From a virus (lineage: Duplodnaviria > Heunggongvirae > Uroviricota > Caudoviricetes): DNA of 29,480 nucleotides. The position numbers and the translations under genes were made by a program. Location: IMG/VR virus record IMGVR_UViG_2541047692_000014. One strand, 5' to 3'. Positions 1 through 28,398 of this stretch are shown here, in pieces (the stretch's first letter is position 1; every line of letters starts with the position of its first letter). Below the pieces are notes generated by a model, which was given only the letters and a program-made list of their open reading frames with translations, was not told where the DNA came from and searched no databases.

Positions 1-1011
1 TTATAACGTCACTCCGCCTTTTAGTGGATTCAGAGCGACGGCATTTTGCAGATAGTCAGGCGCAAGGTGCGCATAGGCCATCGTCTGCTGAATGCTCGCA
101 TGTCCCAGAATCTGTTGCAGTGCGATTATATTGCCCCCATTCATCATGAAATGGCTTGCGAATGTATGCCGCAGGATGTGGGTTGCCTGATTGGGTGGTA
201 TATCAGGTTTCACTCTGCGTAAAATCCCGCAAAATTTCTCATAATCAACTTTGAATAATTTGGCGCTGGCCTCCTCTTTAACTTTTTTCTCCAGTTCCTC
301 AGAAATCGGCACGGTTCGCTTTTTACCGTTTTTGGTTTTCAGGAAGGTAACCCTGCAATTTGTAATCTGTGCTGGTTTTAGCGTGGCAACTTCCGTCCAT
401 CTTCCTCCAGTGCTCAGACATAAAAGCGCGACAAGTAAGTCATCACCAGCCAAAACATTTAACAGTTTTTCGATTTCTGCTTTTTCCAGGAACGTCATTT
501 CAGGGTTGGCCTCCGCCAGTGGCGGCAGTCCGTGAATTGGGTGTTGCCCAGAAAATTCATCCAATTGAATTAATTTTGTGAACATGCCGGATAATCGGTA
601 CATGTCACGGTTTATCGTTGCGGCACTGATACCATCACGTAGTCGCATGGAACGATAATCCATCAAAGCCCTTTTGCTCATCCTGCTCACTGGTATATCA
701 CCTATGCCGCTGATGGTTTTGAGTAGATGATTAAACTCTTTTGTTCCATGCTCGTGGTTTTGCCCGTGATATTTCCACCAGATGTCCAGCAACTCACTCA
801 AAGTCCGGCGGTCTGCTCGCTGGCCTCCCCATTCTTTCTGACTGGCATTGGCGATTGTGTATCGCTCAAATGCTAGTGCTTCAGCTTTTCTTTCGAATTT
901 CCTGCGGATGCGTTTTCCGTCGCGACCGCGAGGTCTAATGTCCACTTCATAGCGACCATCATCGAGCTTCTTAATTGCCATAAGAAAGCCCTCCGGCGCT
1001 GTATTCACCAT
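1..1011 (-). CDS. int: Tyrosine integrase (P2 Int-like), 336 aa
   Basis: Translation has a C-terminal tyrosine recombinase signature (HTFASHFMMNGGNI...LQQILGHASIQQTMAYAHL) and sits next to the repressor at the prophage end. An internal ATG at 981 (MAIKKL...) has a better SD (GGAGG, 8 nt spacing) and may be the true start. Confidence 0.9.
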   Translation of the reverse strand: MVNTAPEGFLMAIKKLDDGRYEVDIRPRGRDGKRIRRKFERKAEALAFERYTIANASQKEWGGQRADRRTLSELLDIWWKYHGQNHEHGTKEFNHLLKTISGIGDIPVSRMSKRALMDYRSMRLRDGISAATINRDMYRLSGMFTKLIQLDEFSGQHPIHGLPPLAEANPEMTFLEKAEIEKLLNVLAGDDLLVALLCLSTGGRWTEVATLKPAQITNCRVTFLKTKNGKKRTVPISEELEKKVKEEASAKLFKVDYEKFCGILRRVKPDIPPNQATHILRHTFASHFMMNGGNIIALQQILGHASIQQTMAYAHLAPDYLQNAVALNPLKGGVTL

Positions 1012-1050
1012 CTTGGTAGCAAATGGTGAAAAGGTAATCTTTATATAGAG

Positions 1051-1344
1051 TTAGCCAATCCTTTTTGCGGAGTGGTTGGACTCTGTTGACTCTGGCCCAA
1101 TGTGCGCGAGAGCCGGTGCGATTTGTCCTGCGTCCGGCGCGGTTTTATCTGTCATAAGCCATAGAGCATATTTTTGGAATGTGGGATGCATAGTGATTTT
1201 TAGCAAAGCTGTGCCACCGGGTTCAAAGTTTCCTCCTTCATATTTTTTAAGTGTGCTTAGCGGTAACTCTATGATTTCACAGAATTTTGATTGGCTTAGC
1301 CCTTCAGCCTCACGCAAGGCCTTAATCTTTTCGCTTAATTTCAT
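1051..1344 (-). CDS. C: Immunity repressor, P2 C-like HTH protein, 97 aa
   Basis: Small HTH-type ORF (KIKALREAEGLSQSKFCEI...) transcribed divergently from cox, directly upstream of int as in P2; size close to the roughly 99-aa P2 C. Confidence 0.8.
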   Translation of the reverse strand: MKLSEKIKALREAEGLSQSKFCEIIELPLSTLKKYEGGNFEPGGTALLKITMHPTFQKYALWLMTDKTAPDAGQIAPALAHIGPESTESNHSAKRIG

Positions 1345-1465
1345 TTGACATGGTGCCTATATAGGGACTAAATTCCCTCAAAACTGGAACCTATATAGGT
1401 TCCATTGATTTGAGAATAAACCAGCGTCTAAACGGTTTTGAGTGGTTTAGAAAGGGCTGGATCCT
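1345..1465. promoter_or_regulatory. C/cox lysis-lysogeny switch region with divergent promoters and palindromic operators
   Basis: Seen in sequence: TTGACA at 1345-1350; palindrome CCTATATAGG at 1356-1365 and again inside the 18-bp perfect palindrome GGAACCTATATAGGTTCC at 1386-1403 (centres about 34 bp apart); inverted repeat AGGGA-N6-TCCCT at 1363-1378. The position between divergent repressor and cox genes matches the P2 Pe/Pc switch. Confidence 0.6.
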
Positions 1466-1753
1466 ATGAGGGTACCATATATGGACGCTGAAAATTATGT
1501 GATTCAGTATCCGCTTGATGCGGTTCATGTGGATAAATTTGCTGATTTATTAGGGAAGCCAAAGACAGCCGTCAGTGAAATGGTGAAGGCAAATAAATTA
1601 CCAATTATTGAATTGCGTGATCCTTGCAAACCGAAGGCTCGTGCCGGTGAAAAATGGGTTTTCATTCCTGAGTTTAATCGCGCTGTACGTGAGGCGTTTT
1701 ATAACCGACCGGTTGAACAGCGTGATGCATGGCTTTTGTGGATGGGGTTGTGA
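1466..1753 (+). CDS. cox: Cox/Apl-like excisionase and early transcription regulator, 95 aa (alternative start at 1481 gives 90 aa)
   Basis: First rightward small ORF after the switch region, divergent from C; size and position match P2 cox (91 aa). Sequence identity to cox was not verified. Confidence 0.7.
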   Translation: MRVPYMDAENYVIQYPLDAVHVDKFADLLGKPKTAVSEMVKANKLPIIELRDPCKPKARAGEKWVFIPEFNRAVREAFYNRPVEQRDAWLLWMGL

Positions 1754-1755
1754 TT

Positions 1756-1926
1756 ATGAATGAGCCGCGTTGTATTGCTCAGTTACTGCGTAACGAAAGC
1801 CCCAGGGCGATTGACTTCACCATCACCCACGGGAAGGGTCGCAAGGGAATCATTATCCGCACCAAAAAACAGAGTCCGTTAAAAAAGGCTCTGACCTTTC
1901 TGAAAAGCCGGAGGGTCTGGAAATGA
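1756..1926 (+). CDS. Small early protein, P2 orf78-like, 56 aa
   Basis: ORF from the internal ATG at 1756, immediately after the cox stop and overlapping the B start; the position matches P2 orf78. Confidence 0.55.
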   Translation: MNEPRCIAQLLRNESPRAIDFTITHGKGRKGIIIRTKKQSPLKKALTFLKSRRVWK

Positions 1927-2423
1927 CAGTGATGACGCTCAATCTCGTTGAAAAACAGCCAGCAGCTATGCGCCGGATAATTGGTAAGCATCTGGCCGTC
2001 CCTCGCTGGCAGGAGACATGCGATTATTATAATCAGATGATGGAACGCGAACGGCTAACGGTTTGCTTCCATGCGCAGTTAAAACAGCGTCACGCAACGA
2101 TGCGTTTTGAAGAAATGAACGACGTCGAACGTGAACGGCTGGTTTGTGCAATTGATGAACTGCGTGGGGCATTCTCAAAACGCCGTCAGGTCGGTGCAAG
2201 TGAGTATGCATATATTAGCTTTTTAACTGTCAGTCAGCGCCGTACTTTATTTATGCATGCGGGATTGACTGAAAAAGAATTCAACCAGCCATACTGGCGA
2301 ATTAATGAAGAGTCATGTTACTGGCGTGATGCTTTATTCCGTGCGTTACGTGAATTATTCAGTCTGTTTGAGTATGCGCCGACAATTCTGACGTCGGTAA
2401 AACCAGAGCAATATCTGCATTAA
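1923..2423 (+). CDS. B: Replication gene B protein (helicase-loader-like), 166 aa
   Basis: 166-aa ORF at the P2 gene B position, identical in length to P2 B; ATGA start/stop overlap with the upstream ORF. Confidence 0.75.
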   Translation: MTVMTLNLVEKQPAAMRRIIGKHLAVPRWQETCDYYNQMMERERLTVCFHAQLKQRHATMRFEEMNDVERERLVCAIDELRGAFSKRRQVGASEYAYISFLTVSQRRTLFMHAGLTEKEFNQPYWRINEESCYWRDALFRALRELFSLFEYAPTILTSVKPEQYLH

Positions 2424-2444
2424 GTAATTAACCAGAGTTTTTAA

Positions 2445-2480
2445 CGCACTTAATCGTGCGGGGCTTCTTTTTGCCTGGAG
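2445..2480 (+). terminator. Possible weak stem-loop terminator or attenuator after B
   Basis: CGCAC-TTAAT-(C)GTGCG hairpin followed by GGGCTTCTTTTT; the U-tract is not immediately adjacent. Confidence 0.3.
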
Positions 2481-2486
2481 AAAGTC

Positions 2487-2711
2487 ATGCATACAGTTTC
2501 TGAAAATCAGTGCGGTAAATACGCATTACTGCTGCAACAGGCCAGAACCGAAGCACATGCCGACGCTGCGACGCGCTTTTCTTCTCATCTTGACGCCATG
2601 ATTCGCCACATCACAAAGGCGGAGTTATCCCGCGTGGAGATAGTCGAGCTGCTCAGTCAGGAGTCGGAAAAATTTCACAATATCGGATTGTCTCGCGGGG
2701 AGGTGCTTTGA
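2487..2711 (+). CDS. Early-operon hypothetical protein, P2 orf80-like, 74 aa
   Basis: ORF with upstream SD (GGAGAAAGTC-ATG); ATGA overlap with the next ORF; the position matches P2 orf80. Confidence 0.6.
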
Positions 2712-3013
2712 TGTCCTGTTCTCATTCAGTTGTATTACTGAATAACGCCTTAAAAATCGCCGTTATGAAAAATGGCGATTTGTCTCTTATTCAACTTGGT
2801 CTTGATAAAGAAAAACGCGAAATAACTGAATATGTTATCGCGATTTATCAGAATGAATTAAACCTCCTGTCTGATGTGGTCAATTTACTTGTTAAACGCG
2901 CTGTATTCCACAAGCAAATTTCCTCCGTGGATGAACTGACGAAATTAACGACAGAAATCGCCAGCTATTGCGCTGATAAATTTAAGAAGCTGAACGACAA
3001 AAGGAGCTGGTAA
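2708..3013 (+). CDS. Early-operon hypothetical protein, P2 orf81-like, 101 aa
   Basis: ORF translationally coupled to its neighbours (ATGA at 2708-2711, TAATG at 3011-3015). Confidence 0.6.
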
Positions 3014-3510
3014 TGCCGGACAACGTAGATTTTATTCAGGAACAACAGGCTGAATTACTGGAGCGCCAGATTAACGCGGCAAGGGTAAAACATTGCGGTG
3101 TTTCTGCGCTGGTTTGCGAAGAGTGTGACGCGCCAATACCTGCTGCCCGTCGTGCGGCTTATCCATCAGCCACGCGTTGTGTTTCCTGTCAGTCAGTCTT
3201 TGAAGCAAAAAAACAAACATTACCGGAGAATGGCATGAGCATTCGTATTGAAATTGGCGAACGTTATGTCGTTACCAGTGACAGCTTTCAGTTTATTCTC
3301 CACGAGAAAAAGAGAGCGGAAAGCGGTAAAAACGCCGGTCAGGAATGGCTGTCGGTGGTTGGTTATTACCCGAAATTAAGCCAGCTCGTTTCCGGCCTGA
3401 TGCATCACGATATTCTGACCGGAAGCGCAAAGTCTTTTGCTGATTTAAACGCGCAGGTTGAGCAACTCAGCAGGCGTTGTTCAGAGGCTTTTGGCTCATA
3501 TGGCCGTTAA
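3013..3510 (+). CDS. TraR/DksA-family C4 zinc-finger protein (orf82-like) fused in frame to an orf83-like domain, 165 aa; an internal start at 3235 would give a separate 91-aa product
   Basis: N-terminal 70 aa carry a CxxC-N17-CxxC motif (CEECDAPIPAARRAAYPSATRCVSCQ) typical of TraR/DksA zinc fingers. There is no stop before the downstream segment; the in-frame ATG at 3235 has a good SD (GGAG). Confidence 0.55.
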   Translation: MPDNVDFIQEQQAELLERQINAARVKHCGVSALVCEECDAPIPAARRAAYPSATRCVSCQSVFEAKKQTLPENGMSIRIEIGERYVVTSDSFQFILHEKKRAESGKNAGQEWLSVVGYYPKLSQLVSGLMHHDILTGSAKSFADLNAQVEQLSRRCSEAFGSYGR

Positions 3511-5785
3511 AGCCTCCGGGCGTTTTGTCCCTCCGTCAGCATTTGCCGCAGGCACCGGTAAGGCGTTTACCGGTGCTTATGCATGGAACGCGCCACGCGA
3601 GGCCGTCGGGCGCGAAAGACCCCTTACACGTGACGAGATGCGTCAGGTGCAAGGTGTTTTATCCACGATTAACCGCCTGCCTTACTTTTTGCGCTCGCTG
3701 TTTACCTCACGCTATGACTACATCCGGCGCAATAAAAGCCCGGTGCACGGGTTTTATTTCCTCACATCCACTTTTCAGCGTCGTTTATGGCCGCGCATTG
3801 AGCGCGTGAATCAGCGCCATGAAATGAACACCGACGCGTCGTTGCTGTTTCTGACAGAGCGTGACCACTATGCGCGTCTGCCGGGGATGAATGACAAGGA
3901 GCTGAAAAAGTTTGCCGCCCGTATCTCATCGCAGCTTTTCATGATGTATGAGGAACTCTGCGATGCCTGGGTGGATGCGCATGGCGAAAAAGAATCGCTG
4001 TTTACGGATGAGGCGCAGGCGCATCTGTATGGTCATGTTGCTGGCGCTGCACGTGCTTTCAATATTTCCCCGCTTTACTGGAAAAAATACCGTAAAGGAC
4101 AGATGACCACGAGGCAGGCATATTCTGCCATTGCCCGTCTGTTTAACGATGAGTGGTGGACTCATCAGCTTAAAGGCCAGCGTATGCGCTGGCATGAGGC
4201 GTTATTGATAGCTGTCGGGGAGGTCAATAAAGACCGTTCTCCTTATGCCAGTAAACATGCCATTCGTGATGTGCGTGCGCGCCGTCAGGCAAATCTGGAG
4301 TTTCTTAAATCGTGTGACCTTGAAAACAGGGAAACCGGCGAACGCATCGACCTTATCAGTAAGGTGATGGGCAGTATTTCTAATCCTGAAATTCGCCGGA
4401 TGGAGCTGATGAACACCATTGCCGGTATTGAGCGTTACGCCGCCGCAGAGTGTGATGTGGGGATGTTTATCACGCTGACCGCGCCGTCAAAGTATCACCC
4501 GACACGTCAGGTCGGAAAAGGCGAAAGTAAAACCGTCCAGCTTAATCACGGCTGGAATGATGAGGCATTTAATCCGAAGGATGCGCAGCGTTATCTCTGC
4601 CGTATCTGGAGCCTGATGCGCACGGCATTCAAGGATAATGATTTACAGGTCTACGGTTTGCGAGTCGTCGAGCCACACCACGACGGAACGCCGCACTGGC
4701 ATATGATGCTTTTTTGTAATCCACGCCAGCGTAACCAGATTATCGAAATCATGCGTCGCTACGCGCTCAAAGAGGATGGCGACGAAAGAGGAGCTGCGCG
4801 AAACCGTTTTCAGGCAAAACACCTTAACCGGGGCGGTGCTGCGGGATATATCGCGAAATACATTTCAAAAAACATCGACGGCTATGCACTGGATGGTCAG
4901 CTCGATAACGATACCGGCAGGCCGCTGAAAGACACCGCCGCGGCTGTTACCGCATGGGCGTCAACGTGGCGCATCCCGCAATTTAAAACGGTTGGCCTGC
5001 CGACAATGGGGGCTTACCGTGAACTACGCAAATTGCCTCGCGGCGTCAGTATTGCTGATGAGTTTGACGAACGCGTCGAGGCTGCACGCGCTGCCGCAGA
5101 CAGTGGTGATTTTGCGTTGTATATCAGCGCGCAGGGTGGGGCAAATGTTCCGCGCGATTGTCAGACTGTCAGGGTTGCCCGTAGTCCGTCGGATGAAGTT
5201 AACGAGTACGAGGAAGAAGTCGAGAGAGTGGTCGGCATTTACGCGCCGCATCTCGGCGCGCGTCATATTCATATCACCAGAACGACGGACTGGCGCATTG
5301 TGCCGAAAGTTCCGGTCGTTGAGCCTTTGACTTTAAAAAGCGGCATCGCCGCGCCTCGGAGTCCTGTCAATAACTGTGGAAAGCTCACTGGTGGTGATAC
5401 TTCGTTACCGGCTCCCACACCTTCTGAGCACGCCGCCGCAGTGCTTAATCTGGTTGATGACGGTGTTATCGAATGGAATGACCCGGAGGTCGTGAGGGCG
5501 CTCAGGGGCGCATTAAAACACGACCTGAGAACACCAAACCGTCAGCAAAGAAGCGGAAGCCCGTTAAAAGCGCATGAAATAGCGCCATCGGCCAGACTGA
5601 CCCGGTCGGAACGAATGCAAATTACCCGTATCCGCGTTGACCTTGCTCAGAACGGTATCAGGCCGCAGCGATGGGAGCTTGAGGCGCTGGTGCGTGGCGC
5701 GACCGTAAATTATGACGGGAAAAAATTCACGTATCCGGTCGCTGATGAGTGGCCGGGATTCTCAACAGTAATGGAGTGGACATGA
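3500..5785 (+). CDS. A: Replication initiation protein A (rolling-circle nicking endonuclease), 761 aa
   Basis: Long ORF with the rolling-circle initiator motifs HWHMMLF (HUH-type metal site) and YIAKYISKNIDGY (catalytic tyrosines). Start placed at the ATG at 3500 (MAVKASGRF...), which gives the P2 gpA length; the ORF-track start at 3458 is an upstream extension overlapping orf83. Confidence 0.92.
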   Translation: MAVKASGRFVPPSAFAAGTGKAFTGAYAWNAPREAVGRERPLTRDEMRQVQGVLSTINRLPYFLRSLFTSRYDYIRRNKSPVHGFYFLTSTFQRRLWPRIERVNQRHEMNTDASLLFLTERDHYARLPGMNDKELKKFAARISSQLFMMYEELCDAWVDAHGEKESLFTDEAQAHLYGHVAGAARAFNISPLYWKKYRKGQMTTRQAYSAIARLFNDEWWTHQLKGQRMRWHEALLIAVGEVNKDRSPYASKHAIRDVRARRQANLEFLKSCDLENRETGERIDLISKVMGSISNPEIRRMELMNTIAGIERYAAAECDVGMFITLTAPSKYHPTRQVGKGESKTVQLNHGWNDEAFNPKDAQRYLCRIWSLMRTAFKDNDLQVYGLRVVEPHHDGTPHWHMMLFCNPRQRNQIIEIMRRYALKEDGDERGAARNRFQAKHLNRGGAAGYIAKYISKNIDGYALDGQLDNDTGRPLKDTAAAVTAWASTWRIPQFKTVGLPTMGAYRELRKLPRGVSIADEFDERVEAARAAADSGDFALYISAQGGANVPRDCQTVRVARSPSDEVNEYEEEVERVVGIYAPHLGARHIHITRTTDWRIVPKVPVVEPLTLKSGIAAPRSPVNNCGKLTGGDTSLPAPTPSEHAAAVLNLVDDGVIEWNDPEVVRALRGALKHDLRTPNRQQRSGSPLKAHEIAPSARLTRSERMQITRIRVDLAQNGIRPQRWELEALVRGATVNYDGKKFTYPVADEWPGFSTVMEWT

Positions 5786-6237
5786 TGGCAAAAATTCACG
5801 AGGTAAAGCTGCACGCAAAATATTTTGACCTTGTGCTGGAAGGAAAGAAACGCGCAGAGTTTCGGAAAAATGACCGTAATTATGAGCGCGGGGACACGTT
5901 GATTTTGCATGAATGGGCGCAGGGTGTGTATACGGGGCGAAAGGTTGAAGCCCGGATAACAGATGTTACTGACCTGTCAGACTGGCTGGAAGATTATGTC
6001 TTGCTAAGTATTGAGCTGCTTAATACAGGCGCATATGAGATTGTGAACTGGAAAGAACTTAGTGAGCGTGGTCTGGTATTCAGAATTAATCATGAAATTA
6101 TGCATCAGCTCGGCCTTTCTGTTATGTATGCACCAGAGACGGGGATGTCTGGCGGGGCAATGGTTGCCACGGATGGAGCATGGAACTATTCAGATGAACA
6201 GATTGAGCGTGCAAAGCAAAACGGGTGGCTTGGATAA
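5782..6237 (+). CDS. ASCH/DUF3850-like domain protein with C-terminal extension, 151 aa
   Basis: ATGA overlap with the gene A stop; N-terminal segment (KIHEVKLHAKYFDLVLEGKKRAEFRKNDRNYERGDTLILHEW) resembles ASCH/PUA-fold proteins. The domain call is from memory and unverified. Confidence 0.55.
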   Translation: MMAKIHEVKLHAKYFDLVLEGKKRAEFRKNDRNYERGDTLILHEWAQGVYTGRKVEARITDVTDLSDWLEDYVLLSIELLNTGAYEIVNWKELSERGLVFRINHEIMHQLGLSVMYAPETGMSGGAMVATDGAWNYSDEQIERAKQNGWLG

Positions 6238-6443
6238 TGCACAGAATACCGGGCGAGATACCGCAACATAACACTAAAAATATCAAGCTGATGGCTATTG
6301 TTCACCGTCTACAGCAGATTATGGTCAACGAAAATCTGACGCCTGACGAGCTGGTCGGGTGTGCCGAAATAGTCCGGGATAATTACGGGCGGCTTAATTA
6401 TATCCGTCAGTCCAGAGTTGCTCCACCGCCACGCAGACTATAG
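6237..6443 (+). CDS. Small hypothetical protein, 68 aa
   Basis: ORF translationally coupled to the upstream gene (TAATG at 6235-6239). No recognisable motif. Confidence 0.45.
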   Translation: MHRIPGEIPQHNTKNIKLMAIVHRLQQIMVNENLTPDELVGCAEIVRDNYGRLNYIRQSRVAPPPRRL

Positions 6444-6658
6444 AAAACGCCGTCAGTCTTGAAACTTGTTTTCAGGGCTGGCGGGGTTGAACAACGAGCA
6501 TCGCGAGGCGTTAGTGGTATTGGAACCAATGAGAAAACAAAAAACTCAACGCCTCCCCTCATGTTTGATGGTATGGTCTTGTTTTTAGGTAATGAAGCTT
6601 TATTCGGGTGACGTGTCTAATATAGCTTTCTGCATGACGTTAGAATGATGATGAGATC

Positions 6659-7261
6659 ATGTTATTAATGAATGAGAAAAAAAGACAAAAATATCTAAAG
6701 ATAATGTTTGAATGTCAAAAGCGACTTGAAACACTTCATGCTTTATCATCTGGAAGGATTGATGGCATTTATTTTCAAGTGTTAATTGAAATGGAGGCGT
6801 TGCAGCTTAGGAAGCTACTAGAGCTCATTGCATTTTCATCTCTAATTTCACATGAAAAAGCATACGAGAAGGTTACAAAGAAGATTGATGGTGTATGGAA
6901 GGCGAAGAATATATTTAAAGAGTTGGAAAAGATAAACCCTAACTTTTATCCAGTACCAATATCAGGAGTAACCAAAACGGGCTGGACGAAACTAACGGGA
7001 GGTTTTTTGACGAAAAAACAGTTTATCAAGCTATATGATGAATGCTCAAAACATATTCACGTAAGGAACCCATATCGGGTTAGGGAAAACTCGCTGGGGT
7101 TTCATAAAAAAGTTCCAGAGTATTTATCAAGAATTGAAACTCTACTGTTAAAGCACATTGTTTCTCTTGCCGGGAATGAAGAACTTCTTCTTGTAGATGT
7201 GCCTCATTATGAAGACTCTGTAACAGCTATAAAAATGAGCCACCTCGTTAAAATGGGGTGA
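6659..7261 (+). CDS. Hypothetical protein of unknown function, 200 aa, AT-rich cargo at the P2 tin/old hotspot; candidate anti-phage defence or superinfection-exclusion gene
   Basis: Uninterrupted 200-codon ORF (alternative start at 6668) in a markedly AT-rich block, unlike the flanking phage core. It follows a 215-bp non-coding spacer and is followed by a stem-loop plus T-run. It sits between the replication module and cos, where P2 carries tin/old. Confidence 0.6.
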   Translation: MLLMNEKKRQKYLKIMFECQKRLETLHALSSGRIDGIYFQVLIEMEALQLRKLLELIAFSSLISHEKAYEKVTKKIDGVWKAKNIFKELEKINPNFYPVPISGVTKTGWTKLTGGFLTKKQFIKLYDECSKHIHVRNPYRVRENSLGFHKKVPEYLSRIETLLLKHIVSLAGNEELLLVDVPHYEDSVTAIKMSHLVKMG

Positions 7262-19340: not shown

Positions 19341-21431
19341 ATGAGCACAAAATTCAAAACCGTTATCACCACTGCCGGTGCAGCAAAGCTGGCAGCGGCA
19401 ACCGCGCCGGGAGGGCGGAAGGTCAACATTACCACGATGGCCGTCGGGGATGGCGGTGGTAAATTGCCTGTCCCGGATGCCGGACAGACCGGGCTTATCC
19501 ATGAAGTCTGGCGACATGCGCTGAACAAAATCAGCCAGGACAAACGAAACAGTAATTATATTATCGCAGAGCTGGTTATTCCGCCGGAGGTGGGCGGTTT
19601 CTGGATGCGTGAGCTTGGCCTGTACGATGATGCGGGAACGTTAATTGCCGTGGCGAACATGGCCGAAAGTTATAAGCCTGCCCTTGCCGAAGGCTCAGGG
19701 CGTTCGCAGACCTGCCGCATGGTCATCATCGTCAGCAGTGTGGCCTCAGTGGCGCTGACCATTGACACCACAACGGTGATGGCGACGCAGGATTACGTTG
19801 ATGACAAAATTGCAGAGCACGAACAGTCACGACGTCACCCGGACGCCTCGCTGACCGAAAAAGGTTTTACTCAGTTAAGCAGTGCGACCAACAGTACGTC
19901 TGAAACACTGGCCGCAACGCCGAAAGCGGTAAAGGCCGCGTATGACCTGGCTAACGGGAAATATACCGCACAGGACGCCACCACAGCGCGAAAAGGCCTT
20001 GTCCAGCTCAGTAGTGCCACCAACAGCACGTCTGAAACGCTCGCCGCAACACCAAAAGCGGTAAAAGCAGCATATGACCTTGCTAACGGGAAATATACAG
20101 CACAGGACGCCACCACAGCGCGAAAAGGCCTTGTCCAGCTCAGTAGCGCCACCAACAGCGACTCTGAAACGCTTGCGGCAACGCCAAAGGCGGTTAAGAC
20201 AGCGTATGACCTTGCTAACGGGAAATACACTGCACAGGATGCCACCACGGCGCGAAAAGGTCTTGTTCAGCTCAGTAGCGCAACCAACAGTGATTCTGAA
20301 ACGCTGGCTGCAACACCAAAAGCGGTGAAGTCTGCCTATGACAATGCTGAAAAACGTCTTCAGAAAGATCAGAACGGTGCGGATATTCCGGGAAAGGATA
20401 CCTTCACGAAAAATATCGGTGCCTGTCGTGCTTATAGCGGCGCTTTGAGCACTGAAGCCGGAAACTGGACAACCGCTCAGTTTATTGAATGGCTGGATTC
20501 CCGTGGTGCATTTAATCATCCGTACTGGATGTGCAAAGGCTCCTGGTCATATGCAAATAACAAAATCATTACGGATACCGGATGTGGTGATATCCACCTG
20601 GCTGGTTGTGTCGTCGAGGTCATGGGAACTAAATCTGCAATCACTATCCGAGTGACCACGCCGACAACATCAAGCGGTGGCGGTACAACCAGCGCACAAT
20701 TCACTTACATTAATCATGGGGACGGCTACTCCCCCGGCTGGCGTCGTGACTGGAATCGTCAGGGCGACGCAATGACCGGAACGATTAATCAGGACGGCGG
20801 AAGCCAGAATACCTATATGTCTACGGCCTTATGTTCAGGCACCAGAGGCGGCAAAAAATATCTCAGAAAGTTTCGTGGTGGAGAAGGAGACACTATCTGG
20901 CATGAAACAGTACAGGGCGGGGTAGTTCGCTGGGCGACAGGTAATACTGATGCTCAGGAAGAATTATCACTAAGCTCCGCTTATGGTCTCCGTTCAAGAG
21001 GTGAAATTACATCACTCAGTGCTAATGGTCTGCGCATTGCTTATGGCAATTATGGATTCTTTATCAGGAATGATGGCGGCAGCACATATTTAATGCTGAC
21101 GGCCTCTGGCGATAAATTTGGAACATGGAACGGTTTAAGACCGCTGACTATCAATAACGCCAATGGCGGAGTGTCAATGGGGCATGGCCTGAGTGTTACT
21201 GGACGTGTTAACCCATCAGATTACGGAAATTTTGATTCCCGCTATGTGAAAGATATTCGCCTGGGTACGCGTGTTGTTCAGACCATGCAAAAAGGCGTGA
21301 TGTATGAGAAAGCAGGGCATGCAATTACAGGACTTGGCATTGTCGGCGAAGTTGATGGCGATGATCCGGCAGTATTCAGACCAATACAAAAATACATTAA
21401 TGGCACATGGTATAACGTCGCACAGGTGTAA
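19341..21431 (+). CDS. H: Tail fibre protein H, 696 aa, with internal tandem 40-aa repeats
   Basis: Long ORF between I and the fibre assembly gene G; 696 aa against about 669 for P2 H, so the fibre differs in length from P2. Confidence 0.9.
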   Translation: MSTKFKTVITTAGAAKLAAATAPGGRKVNITTMAVGDGGGKLPVPDAGQTGLIHEVWRHALNKISQDKRNSNYIIAELVIPPEVGGFWMRELGLYDDAGTLIAVANMAESYKPALAEGSGRSQTCRMVIIVSSVASVALTIDTTTVMATQDYVDDKIAEHEQSRRHPDASLTEKGFTQLSSATNSTSETLAATPKAVKAAYDLANGKYTAQDATTARKGLVQLSSATNSTSETLAATPKAVKAAYDLANGKYTAQDATTARKGLVQLSSATNSDSETLAATPKAVKTAYDLANGKYTAQDATTARKGLVQLSSATNSDSETLAATPKAVKSAYDNAEKRLQKDQNGADIPGKDTFTKNIGACRAYSGALSTEAGNWTTAQFIEWLDSRGAFNHPYWMCKGSWSYANNKIITDTGCGDIHLAGCVVEVMGTKSAITIRVTTPTTSSGGGTTSAQFTYINHGDGYSPGWRRDWNRQGDAMTGTINQDGGSQNTYMSTALCSGTRGGKKYLRKFRGGEGDTIWHETVQGGVVRWATGNTDAQEELSLSSAYGLRSRGEITSLSANGLRIAYGNYGFFIRNDGGSTYLMLTASGDKFGTWNGLRPLTINNANGGVSMGHGLSVTGRVNPSDYGNFDSRYVKDIRLGTRVVQTMQKGVMYEKAGHAITGLGIVGEVDGDDPAVFRPIQKYINGTWYNVAQV
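19860..20339 (+). repeat. Four tandem, in-frame 120-nt (40-aa) repeats inside tail fibre gene H
   Basis: Protein repeats of the form KGLVQLSSATNS(T/D)SETLAATPKAVKxAYDLANGKYTAQDATTAR. Nucleotide copies differ mainly at synonymous positions (e.g. ACGCCGAAAGCGGTAAAGGCC versus ACACCAAAAGCGGTAAAAGCA). Confidence 0.85.
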
Positions 21432-27235: not shown

Positions 27236-28398
27236 TGCTGGATGCGCTGACATTTGATGCAGGCAGTACGCTGACGCCGGATTACATGCTGATGCTCGAC
27301 AGCAGGGATATTACCGGCAATATCAGCGACCGTCTGATGAGCATGACCCTGACGGATAACCGGGGCTTTGAGGCTGACCAGCTTGATATTGAACTGAACG
27401 ACGCCGACGGGCAGGTAGGGCTACCGGTTCGTGGCGCTGTCCTGACGGTGTATATCGGCTGGAAAGGTTTTGCCCTGGTATGCAAAGGGAAATTTACCGT
27501 TGATGAGGTTGAACACCGGGGCGCACCGGATGTGGTCACCATCCGCGCCCGGAGTGCAGATTTTCGCGGGACGCTCAATTCCCGCCGGGAAGGCTCCTGG
27601 CATGACACCACGCTCGGTGCGATTGTTGAGGCGATAGCCACCCGTAACAGGCTGGAAGCCAGTGTCGCTCCGTCACTGGCCGGAATAAAAATTCCACACA
27701 TCGACCAGTCGCAGGAGTCTGATGCGAAATTCCTGACCCGTCTTGCAGAACGCAACGGCGGTGAGGTGTCGGTAAAAATGGGAAAACTGTTGTTTCTCAA
27801 AGCGGGGCAGGGAGTGACGGCCAGCGGTAAAAAAATCCCGCAGGTCACCATAACCCGCAGCGACGGCGACCGCCATCATTTTGCGATTGCTGACCGTGGA
27901 GCCTACACCGGTGTAACGGCAAAATGGCTACACACTAAAGACCCGAAGCCGCAAAAGCAGAAGGTAAAACTGAAACGCAAAAAGAAAGAGAAACACCTGC
28001 GCGCACTGGAGCACCCGAAAGCGAAACCGGTCAGGCAGAAGAAAGCGCCTAAAGTACCGGAAGCGCGTGAAGGTGAATACATGGCCGGTGAGGCTGACAA
28101 CGTTTTTGCACTGACCACGGTATATGCCACGAAAGCGCAGGCCATGCGCGCCGCTCAGGCGAAGTGGGATAAACTGCAACGGGGTGTGGCGGAGTTCTCC
28201 ATCAGCCTGGCTACCGGTCGGGCAGATATTTACACGGAAACACCGGTTAAAGTGTCAGGCTTTAAGCGCGTCATAGACGAGCAGGACTGGACAATCACTA
28301 AGGTGACACATTTTCTGAATAATAGCGGCTTCACGACGTCCTTGGAGCTTGAGGTCAGGCTTTCTGATGTGGAGTACGAAACAGAAGATGATGAGTGA
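27235..28398 (+). CDS. D: Tail protein D (late control gene D), 387 aa
   Basis: 387-aa ORF, the P2 gpD length, last gene of the FI-FII-E-T-U-D operon. Confidence 0.9.
   Translation: MLDALTFDAGSTLTPDYMLMLDSRDITGNISDRLMSMTLTDNRGFEADQLDIELNDADGQVGLPVRGAVLTVYIGWKGFALVCKGKFTVDEVEHRGAPDVVTIRARSADFRGTLNSRREGSWHDTTLGAIVEAIATRNRLEASVAPSLAGIKIPHIDQSQESDAKFLTRLAERNGGEVSVKMGKLLFLKAGQGVTASGKKIPQVTITRSDGDRHHFAIADRGAYTGVTAKWLHTKDPKPQKQKVKLKRKKKEKHLRALEHPKAKPVRQKKAPKVPEAREGEYMAGEADNVFALTTVYATKAQAMRAAQAKWDKLQRGVAEFSISLATGRADIYTETPVKVSGFKRVIDEQDWTITKVTHFLNNSGFTTSLELEVRLSDVEYETEDDE

Follow-up and report, generated by a model that had tools for sequence, protein, structure and literature searches.

In the early region of the prophage examined here, one long open reading frame occupies the place where bacteriophage P2 has two short genes, orf82 and orf83, which raises the question of how the two genes became joined, and what the fusion means for the TraR-like protein encoded by the first of them. 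Judged by its gene content, the analyzed stretch of DNA (29,480 nucleotides, below called the window) is a P2-like (Peduovirus) prophage of E. coli. Its early region consists of int (1–1011, − strand), C (1051–1344, − strand), cox, orf78, B (1923–2423), orf80 (2487–2711), orf81, the fused reading frame and A, so that its genes lie at the same position as in the P2 early operon, which has the order cox-orf78-B-orf80-orf81-orf82-orf83-A. The late genes Q to D, followed by ogr, are located downstream of gene A, and at its right end the window consists of E. coli chromosomal DNA. A tblastn search with 42 P2 proteins gave gapless full-length matches of 90–100% identity for Q–D, ogr, B and A, with the exception of H, and the match of P2 Orf82 was limited to residues 1–68. 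The int, C and cox products are diverged from those of P2, and because they are only 52%, 43% and 43% identical, respectively, the prophage is probably heteroimmune to P2, and its attachment site is probably a different one. The window contains no tRNA gene, and tblastn detected no counterparts of orf30, fun(Z), tin and old, which are cargo genes in P2. On the basis of its sequence, the prophage looks functional, as all P2 proteins that have a counterpart in the window, other than H and the interrupted Orf82, could be aligned over their whole length and ungapped.

Several genes outside the early cassette also differ from P2. The tail-fiber gene H (19341–21428, + strand) is mosaic, with the N-terminal 251 residues 95% identical to P2, with P2 H residues 168–251 matched again directly downstream (20106–20357, 81%), and with a C-terminus that is only 76% identical to P2. 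This organization suggests that part of the gene was duplicated internally and that its receptor-binding end was exchanged. A 200-aa reading frame (6659–7261, + strand) without a Pfam or PADLOC match lies between the orf91-like gene and Q. It occupies the site of tin/old in P2, a locus known for lysogenic-conversion and defense cargo, and is a candidate cargo gene. The orf91 homolog itself (5749–6237, + strand) is 162 aa long when read from GTG, as in the list of open reading frames, and 151 aa in L004, as compared with 109 aa in P2. It contains a DUF3850/ASCH domain and a C-terminal DUF7415, and only its first 75 residues match P2 Orf91.

The fused frame belongs to a cassette (2708–3510) in which the TraR homolog lies between two DUF5405 paralogs, orf81 and orf83, which are 22% identical to each other. 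The genes orf81, orf82 and orf83 are joined by overlapping stop-starts (TAATG and ATGA), and the fact that this arrangement is kept in the Kosakonia and Scandinavium relatives suggests that the three proteins act together. In the window, the TAA of orf81 (2711–3013) overlaps the ATG of orf82, while gene A, which encodes the replication endonuclease (3500–5785), begins with its ATG inside orf83 and shares the final 11 nt of that gene, as is also seen in P2; these genes and all the elements described below are on the + strand. Both direct reading and the list of open reading frames showed a single frame from the ATG at 3013 to the stop codon at 3508–3510, which encodes 165 aa, composed of Orf82 residues 1–66, the sequence KQTLPENG and the full 91-aa Orf83. 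The exact protein is also present in public collections. The part read in the native orf82 frame (residues 1–66; 3013–3210) encodes the C4 zinc motif, preceded by a TraR-like N-terminal helix and followed by the first half of the C-terminal one. It is followed by the A7 homopolymer (3207–3213), flanked by C3206 and C3214, and by the codons of K67–G74 (3211–3234), which are the 5′ leader of orf83 read in the orf83 frame and displace the native tail NKHYRRMA. A GGAG sequence at 3225–3228, which is the putative Shine–Dalgarno sequence of orf83, is located 6 nt before the ATG at 3235, and this ATG is in frame with that at 3013 (3013 plus 74 codons). The orf83 part (3235–3510, DUF5405, 91 aa) is intact, while the TGA of the conserved ATGA overlap (3236–3238), which serves as the orf82 stop in A6 alleles, is here out of frame. 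The positions of the A7 run and of the in-frame ATG with its own Shine–Dalgarno sequence are thus exactly those given in the initial annotation of this DNA.

The assignment of the first ~70 residues to a TraR/DksA C4 zinc finger, which had been made from the sequence alone, agrees with the profile searches. In Pfam, zf-dskA_traR (PF01258) matched residues 34–64 (E = 1.9e-10, 41 bits, cut-off 24.9), and DUF5405 (PF17399) matched residues 79–160 (E = 3.4e-13, 50.3 bits, cut-off 21.6). In PHROGs, the DksA-like zinc-finger family phrog_54 covered residues 1–68, with the profile match ending at position 69 of 75, and phrog_154 covered residues 74–164 (E = 1.2e-41). The zinc motif CxxC-x17-CxxC can be read directly as C35EEC38 and C56VSC59. 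The N-terminus, D3-N-V-D6-F-I8, keeps both aspartates of the DxxDxA motif, by which the RNA polymerase active site is reached in this family, and is without its alanine, which is likewise absent from the active P2 Orf82 (PMC9239242). The C-terminal helix with its (R/K)-K/R-H-Y tail is incomplete in the fusion, because NKHYRRMA is displaced from residue 67 on. The DUF5405 domain was modeled as four strands and two helices (pLDDT 81.7). The AlphaFold model of the whole fusion was of low confidence (pLDDT 65, pTM 0.42); it placed a helix at residues 57–68, a disordered segment at 69–75 (pLDDT <50), and then a separate domain of four strands and two helices, which could tentatively suggest that residues 69–75 are a flexible linker.

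To establish how the fused frame is related to the P2 genes, the A-run was compared with that of P2 and near prophages. In P2 (NC_001895) orf82 (27548–27772, 74 aa) and orf83 (27769–28044, 91 aa) are annotated as separate genes with an ATGA stop-start overlap, as had been supposed in the first reading of the window, and two separate CDS in the same arrangement are found in the two closest E. coli prophages, GN04171 and OZ038535. The alignment showed A6 in P2, GN04171 and OZ038535, and A7 in the window; the run is A6 in all other relatives sampled as well. Hence, P2 has neither the A7 run nor a single 165-aa reading frame, and the earlier proposal that a 1-nt difference in the run decides between a fusion and two genes proved correct, the difference being exactly one A. 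When a 611-nt query was used, all 80 matches listed were one base shorter on the record side than on the query side, because the run is A6 there and A7 in the window. With the extra A, the orf82 frame changes to that of orf83 at 22 nt ahead of the ATG of the latter, so that two genes with an ATGA overlap in P2 correspond to one frame in the window. The window sequence is 95.6% identical to P2 over Orf82 residues 1–68 and 96.7% identical over Orf83, while the last 8 residues of Orf82, which are NKHYRRTA in P2, are replaced by KQTLPENG.

The distribution of the A7 allele was then determined in sequence collections. A 40-nt A7 query, in which every 28-mer seed had to span C-A7-C, had no matches in 5,426 complete E. 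coli genomes, whereas the A6 control 40-mer was found at 1,634 places in 1,446 of them. Similarly, an A7 26-mer had no matches in IMG/VR, where the A6 counterpart had at least 120, and A7 was not matched in JGI metagenomes. With a pattern that left the run unconstrained, A6 was observed in 141/141 further P2-clade junctions, among which the sole variant inside the motif was one AAT for AAC. On the other hand, the exact 165-aa protein was found in NCBI as EQO33823 (E. coli HVH 40), EQO49185 (HVH 37) and EQQ83992, with the entries of the HVH strains labeled as hypothetical protein, and also in Logan, ENA and JGI assemblies (28 contigs; 54 position-index blocks). The count of A7 rests on agreement between assemblies: at least four of the named datasets are independent, while the other 23 contigs were collapsed in the look-up. 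The neighboring proteins were identical on all 24 contigs that were read with the 165-aa protein, which indicates one prophage lineage. The closest A6 haplotype was that of GN04171, from which the window differs in a block of 1,015 nt (2691–3705) only by the extra A, while the flanks of this block are ~3.6% diverged. The insertion is therefore younger than any substitution in the block. Taken together, the sequence comparisons indicate that the fusion is a genuine, rare, recent and lineage-restricted one-base insertion, which joins two known P2 early genes, and that the fused frame is an ordinary mutational event and not a new kind of gene. Of the three possibilities raised in the initial annotation, it is the strain- or lineage-specific fusion that is supported, as the allele recurs across assemblies on one haplotype. 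The comparative data lend no support to programmed slippage at this site, and an artefact seems unlikely.

We consider it highly probable that a recent slippage-type A6 to A7 insertion in orf82 fused this gene to orf83, with a product that is probably weakened or altered, and that the change is probably neutral or mildly deleterious. Most plausibly, replication slippage added one A near the 3′ end of orf82. Ribosomes that start at the ATG at 3013 would then enter the orf83 frame 22 nt ahead of the orf83 start, and because of this frame change they would miss the TGA of the ATGA overlap and continue to the orf83 stop, giving the product Orf82(1–66)-KQTLPENG-Orf83(1–91). Free Orf83 would probably still be made from its own GGAG and ATG, and the coupling into gene A should be unchanged with its overlap intact. 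The A7 allele would afterward be inherited vertically with the host lineage.

The insertion and the reading frame that it creates are established by the sequence, and their consequences for the TraR homolog can be predicted from what is known about this family. P2 Orf82 binds RNA polymerase, inhibits the rrnB P1 promoter with an IC50 of 250 nM, complements a dksA deletion strain, and competes with DksA for RNA polymerase (PMC9239242). Like wild-type P2 Orf82, F-plasmid TraR and phage lambda Orf73 are regulators that act by way of RNA polymerase's secondary channel. Wild-type Orf82 aligns with TraR (PDB 5W1S, 6N57) over residues 14–71, including the C4 motif and the KHY tail, and the C-terminal RKHYA of TraR is aligned with the Orf82 tail. 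TraR's C-terminal helix, residues 58–73, contacts the beta lobe-Si1 as part of an interface that is important in activation as well as in inhibition (PMC6970531). The fusion protein would retain the N-terminal helix, which enters the secondary channel, as well as D3, D6 and the zinc domain, but its C-terminal helix would lack the second half, to which the K-H-Y-R tail conserved in the family belongs, and it would gain a proline-containing linker and a 91-residue domain. As read from the sequence, it thus differs from TraR in that it is without the equivalents of R69–A73 and has an additional 91-residue domain. Across the Kosakonia and Scandinavium relatives, as well as those of further genera, a (K/R)H(Y/F)R tail is kept in zero frame. 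Of the 14 zinc-finger relatives, when P2 is counted among them, 12 have retained the ATGA overlap. The retention of the tail in distant relatives, together with its alignment with that of TraR, indicates that the native Orf82 tail is under selection. Because this conserved tail is replaced and a 91-residue domain is added, the fusion most likely acts on RNA polymerase more weakly than Orf82 does, or in an altered way. The mere lengthening of the C-terminus might be tolerated, since a 4-residue C-terminal tag was harmless to TraR (PMC9239242).

The A7 allele is probably neutral or mildly deleterious. To our knowledge, neither orf82 nor orf83 has a known essential role. In the P2 record, B and A are flagged as essential, but orf82 and orf83 are not, and the immunity repressor C is described as blocking the early promoter Pe in the lysogen (P2 record; PMC1904263). 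The absence of a recorded essential role and the silencing of Pe by C could explain how a near-neutral allele persists by vertical descent.

Two further fusion alleles were observed in the same cassette. In the first one, an A6 to A7 change in TTTAAAAAACTG, near the end of orf81, joins orf81 to orf82, which results in a 175-aa DUF5405+TraR protein (P0042). This fusion is present at L142:1750–1830 and at L143–L146, which are other P2-like prophages, and 74 sequences belong to its protein cluster; 13 contigs were found to carry the fusion, on at least two immunity (C/cox) backgrounds. The window counterpart of this site (2983–2989) has AAGAAG and is unfused. The orf81-orf82 allele resembles that in the window in that A6 has become A7 a few codons ahead of a stop-start overlap in the same cassette. 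It differs in affecting the other junction, and in that the native C-terminus of TraR is retained and the protein is extended at its N-terminus. The second one is an A4 allele of the orf82 run itself, with two A's fewer than in P2 (L141:245–739, Logan SRR12247520), which encodes a 164-aa fusion (P0016) on a sequence background other than that of the window. As it comes from a single 1.3-kb contig, a read error is possible.

An explanation that goes beyond a chance insertion is that the A7 allele was selected, either because it tethers DUF5405 to the RNA polymerase-binding module, or because it weakens an early protein that arrests growth. When P2 Orf82 was overexpressed, the cells reportedly ceased to grow (Liu et al. 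1993, as cited in PMC9239242). The occurrence of the allele in several isolates and in a recent sequencing run could also fit this explanation, as could the analogous orf81-orf82 fusion, whose presence on at least two immunity backgrounds suggests that fusions are tolerated in the gene cassette. However, A7 is confined to one prophage haplotype, with the same neighboring proteins on 24/24 contigs read, it is very rare overall, and it destroys a conserved motif. Furthermore, a TraR+DUF5405 fusion is not conserved in distant relatives. In a search of 1.84 billion representative proteins, no such architecture was seen among the best 150 of 558 matches, in which either the N-terminal ~70 residues were matched by proteins of ~70–75 aa, or the C-terminal ~90 residues by proteins of ~90 aa; longer distant matches (P0164, P0181, P0191, P0248) had unrelated extensions. 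In a search of 5.8 billion proteins, every protein with both Pfam domains was a close P2-clade variant, including the A4 allele (P0016) and an in-frame deletion variant (P0017), while P0018 and several others had multiple frameshifts typical of noisy assemblies. A conserved domain fusion in relatives was therefore rejected, as all the two-domain matches were close P2-clade frameshift or deletion variants. These data leave selection of the A7 allele a very small probability.

It could also be considered that the junction is a site of programmed recoding, either with the A6 run in GC A_AAA_AAC acting as a −1 site and the fusion being a natural minor product, or with A7 being partly decoded back into separate products by transcriptional or ribosomal slippage. 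In A6 alleles the X_XXY_YYZ heptamer is indeed in the zero-frame register, a −1 shift on it would yield almost the fusion encoded by the A7 allele, and the −1 frame is open to the orf83 ATG, although only 7 codons must be open, which has a ~70% chance of occurring without selection. In an IS cluster, A_AAA_AAC is a proven site of frameshifting for which no stimulator is known, and heptamers by themselves raise frameshifting to 2–10 times background; on the other hand, stimulator-free motifs shift at ~0.5% or less in E. coli (PMC4066793). A stimulatory element was sought as a structure 5–9 nt downstream or an upstream Shine–Dalgarno-like sequence, and none was seen near the motif. The predicted fold of 3200–3290 was not significant (z = −1.23; 26 of 200 shuffled sequences folded as well), and the nearest predicted stem begins ~15 nt past the motif. 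Although A6 is invariant over the 141 further P2-clade junctions, this observation carries little weight, because these sequences are too similar to each other. The existence of a second fusion allele, A4, at the same run could also point to recoding. More divergent sequences, comprising 15 loci from other genera, were also compared. The A-run is absent in nine relatives (Kosakonia, Scandinavium, Pseudescherichia and an Enterobacteriaceae isolate), for example in Kosakonia GCGAAAGCAAAACAC and Scandinavium GCCAACGCCAGACAC, and yet the zero-frame tail and the ATGA overlap are kept. In the window, a −1 shift on A_AAA_AAA meets a stop at 3249–3251, and thus does not restore Orf82, which could be restored only by a +1 shift or from an mRNA one A shorter. 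Programmed frameshifting as a conserved feature was rejected, as the run is not conserved while the tail and the overlap are, and the folding is not significant. Recoding as a whole therefore appears about as improbable as selection of the A7 allele. The sequences do not support a selected recoding signal in wild-type P2, while adventitious low-level frameshifting may occur there.

In a related scenario, wild-type A_AAA_AAC would be an IS1-like stimulator-free −1 site, which produces a little Orf82-Orf83 fusion tethering DUF5405 to RNA polymerase, and the lineage of the window would have fixed this product. The A_AAA_AAC heptamer is that used for −1 frameshifting in IS1, where an added A that makes the fusion constitutive has reportedly been introduced experimentally. 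The A6 alleles of orf82 share with IS1 insA-insB′ the heptamer, its register, and a −1 frame that runs into the downstream gene. In IS1, however, the motif is conserved and the fused product is the transposase, which is essential, whereas in orf82 the motif is missing in divergent relatives, and there is no sign that a fusion would be required. We consider this scenario very improbable. If wild-type A_AAA_AAC does frameshift, it would be a second recoding event in P2, but the comparative evidence is against it.

An equally slight chance is that the A7 run is an artefact, the true run being A6 (or A8) and the fusion being absent from the cell. Homopolymers are classic sites of indel errors, variants of the locus with multiple frameshifts are present in the protein database (P0018, P0019, P0023, P0024, P0028, P0047), and A7 is missing from all complete RefSeq E. 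coli genomes. However, an assembly error is unlikely because independent datasets agree: the identical protein is present in at least three NCBI entries, with two named strains, in the Logan assembly of an unrelated run, and in ENA and JGI, and one such contig, from SRR31716183, matches 6.5 kb of the window (13–6510) with 100% identity. Error-prone data would also not be expected to leave the window without any other frame break in the tblastn comparison with P2 proteins. General prophage decay was ruled out as a cause, as no other P2 gene is broken apart from the mosaic H.

The one-base insertion in orf82 matters mainly for annotation and as a natural C-terminal variant of a TraR-family protein. 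A 165-aa two-domain protein found in databases results from the joining of two known P2 genes by a frameshift and does not represent a new architecture, which calls for caution in its annotation. The orf82 and orf81 A7 alleles both arose at short A6 runs that precede overlapping stop-starts, and such runs are recurrent sources of fusions in this cassette. Finally, the A7 allele is a natural experiment, in which a TraR homolog has lost its conserved tail and gained a bulky domain, in a prophage that otherwise looks intact.
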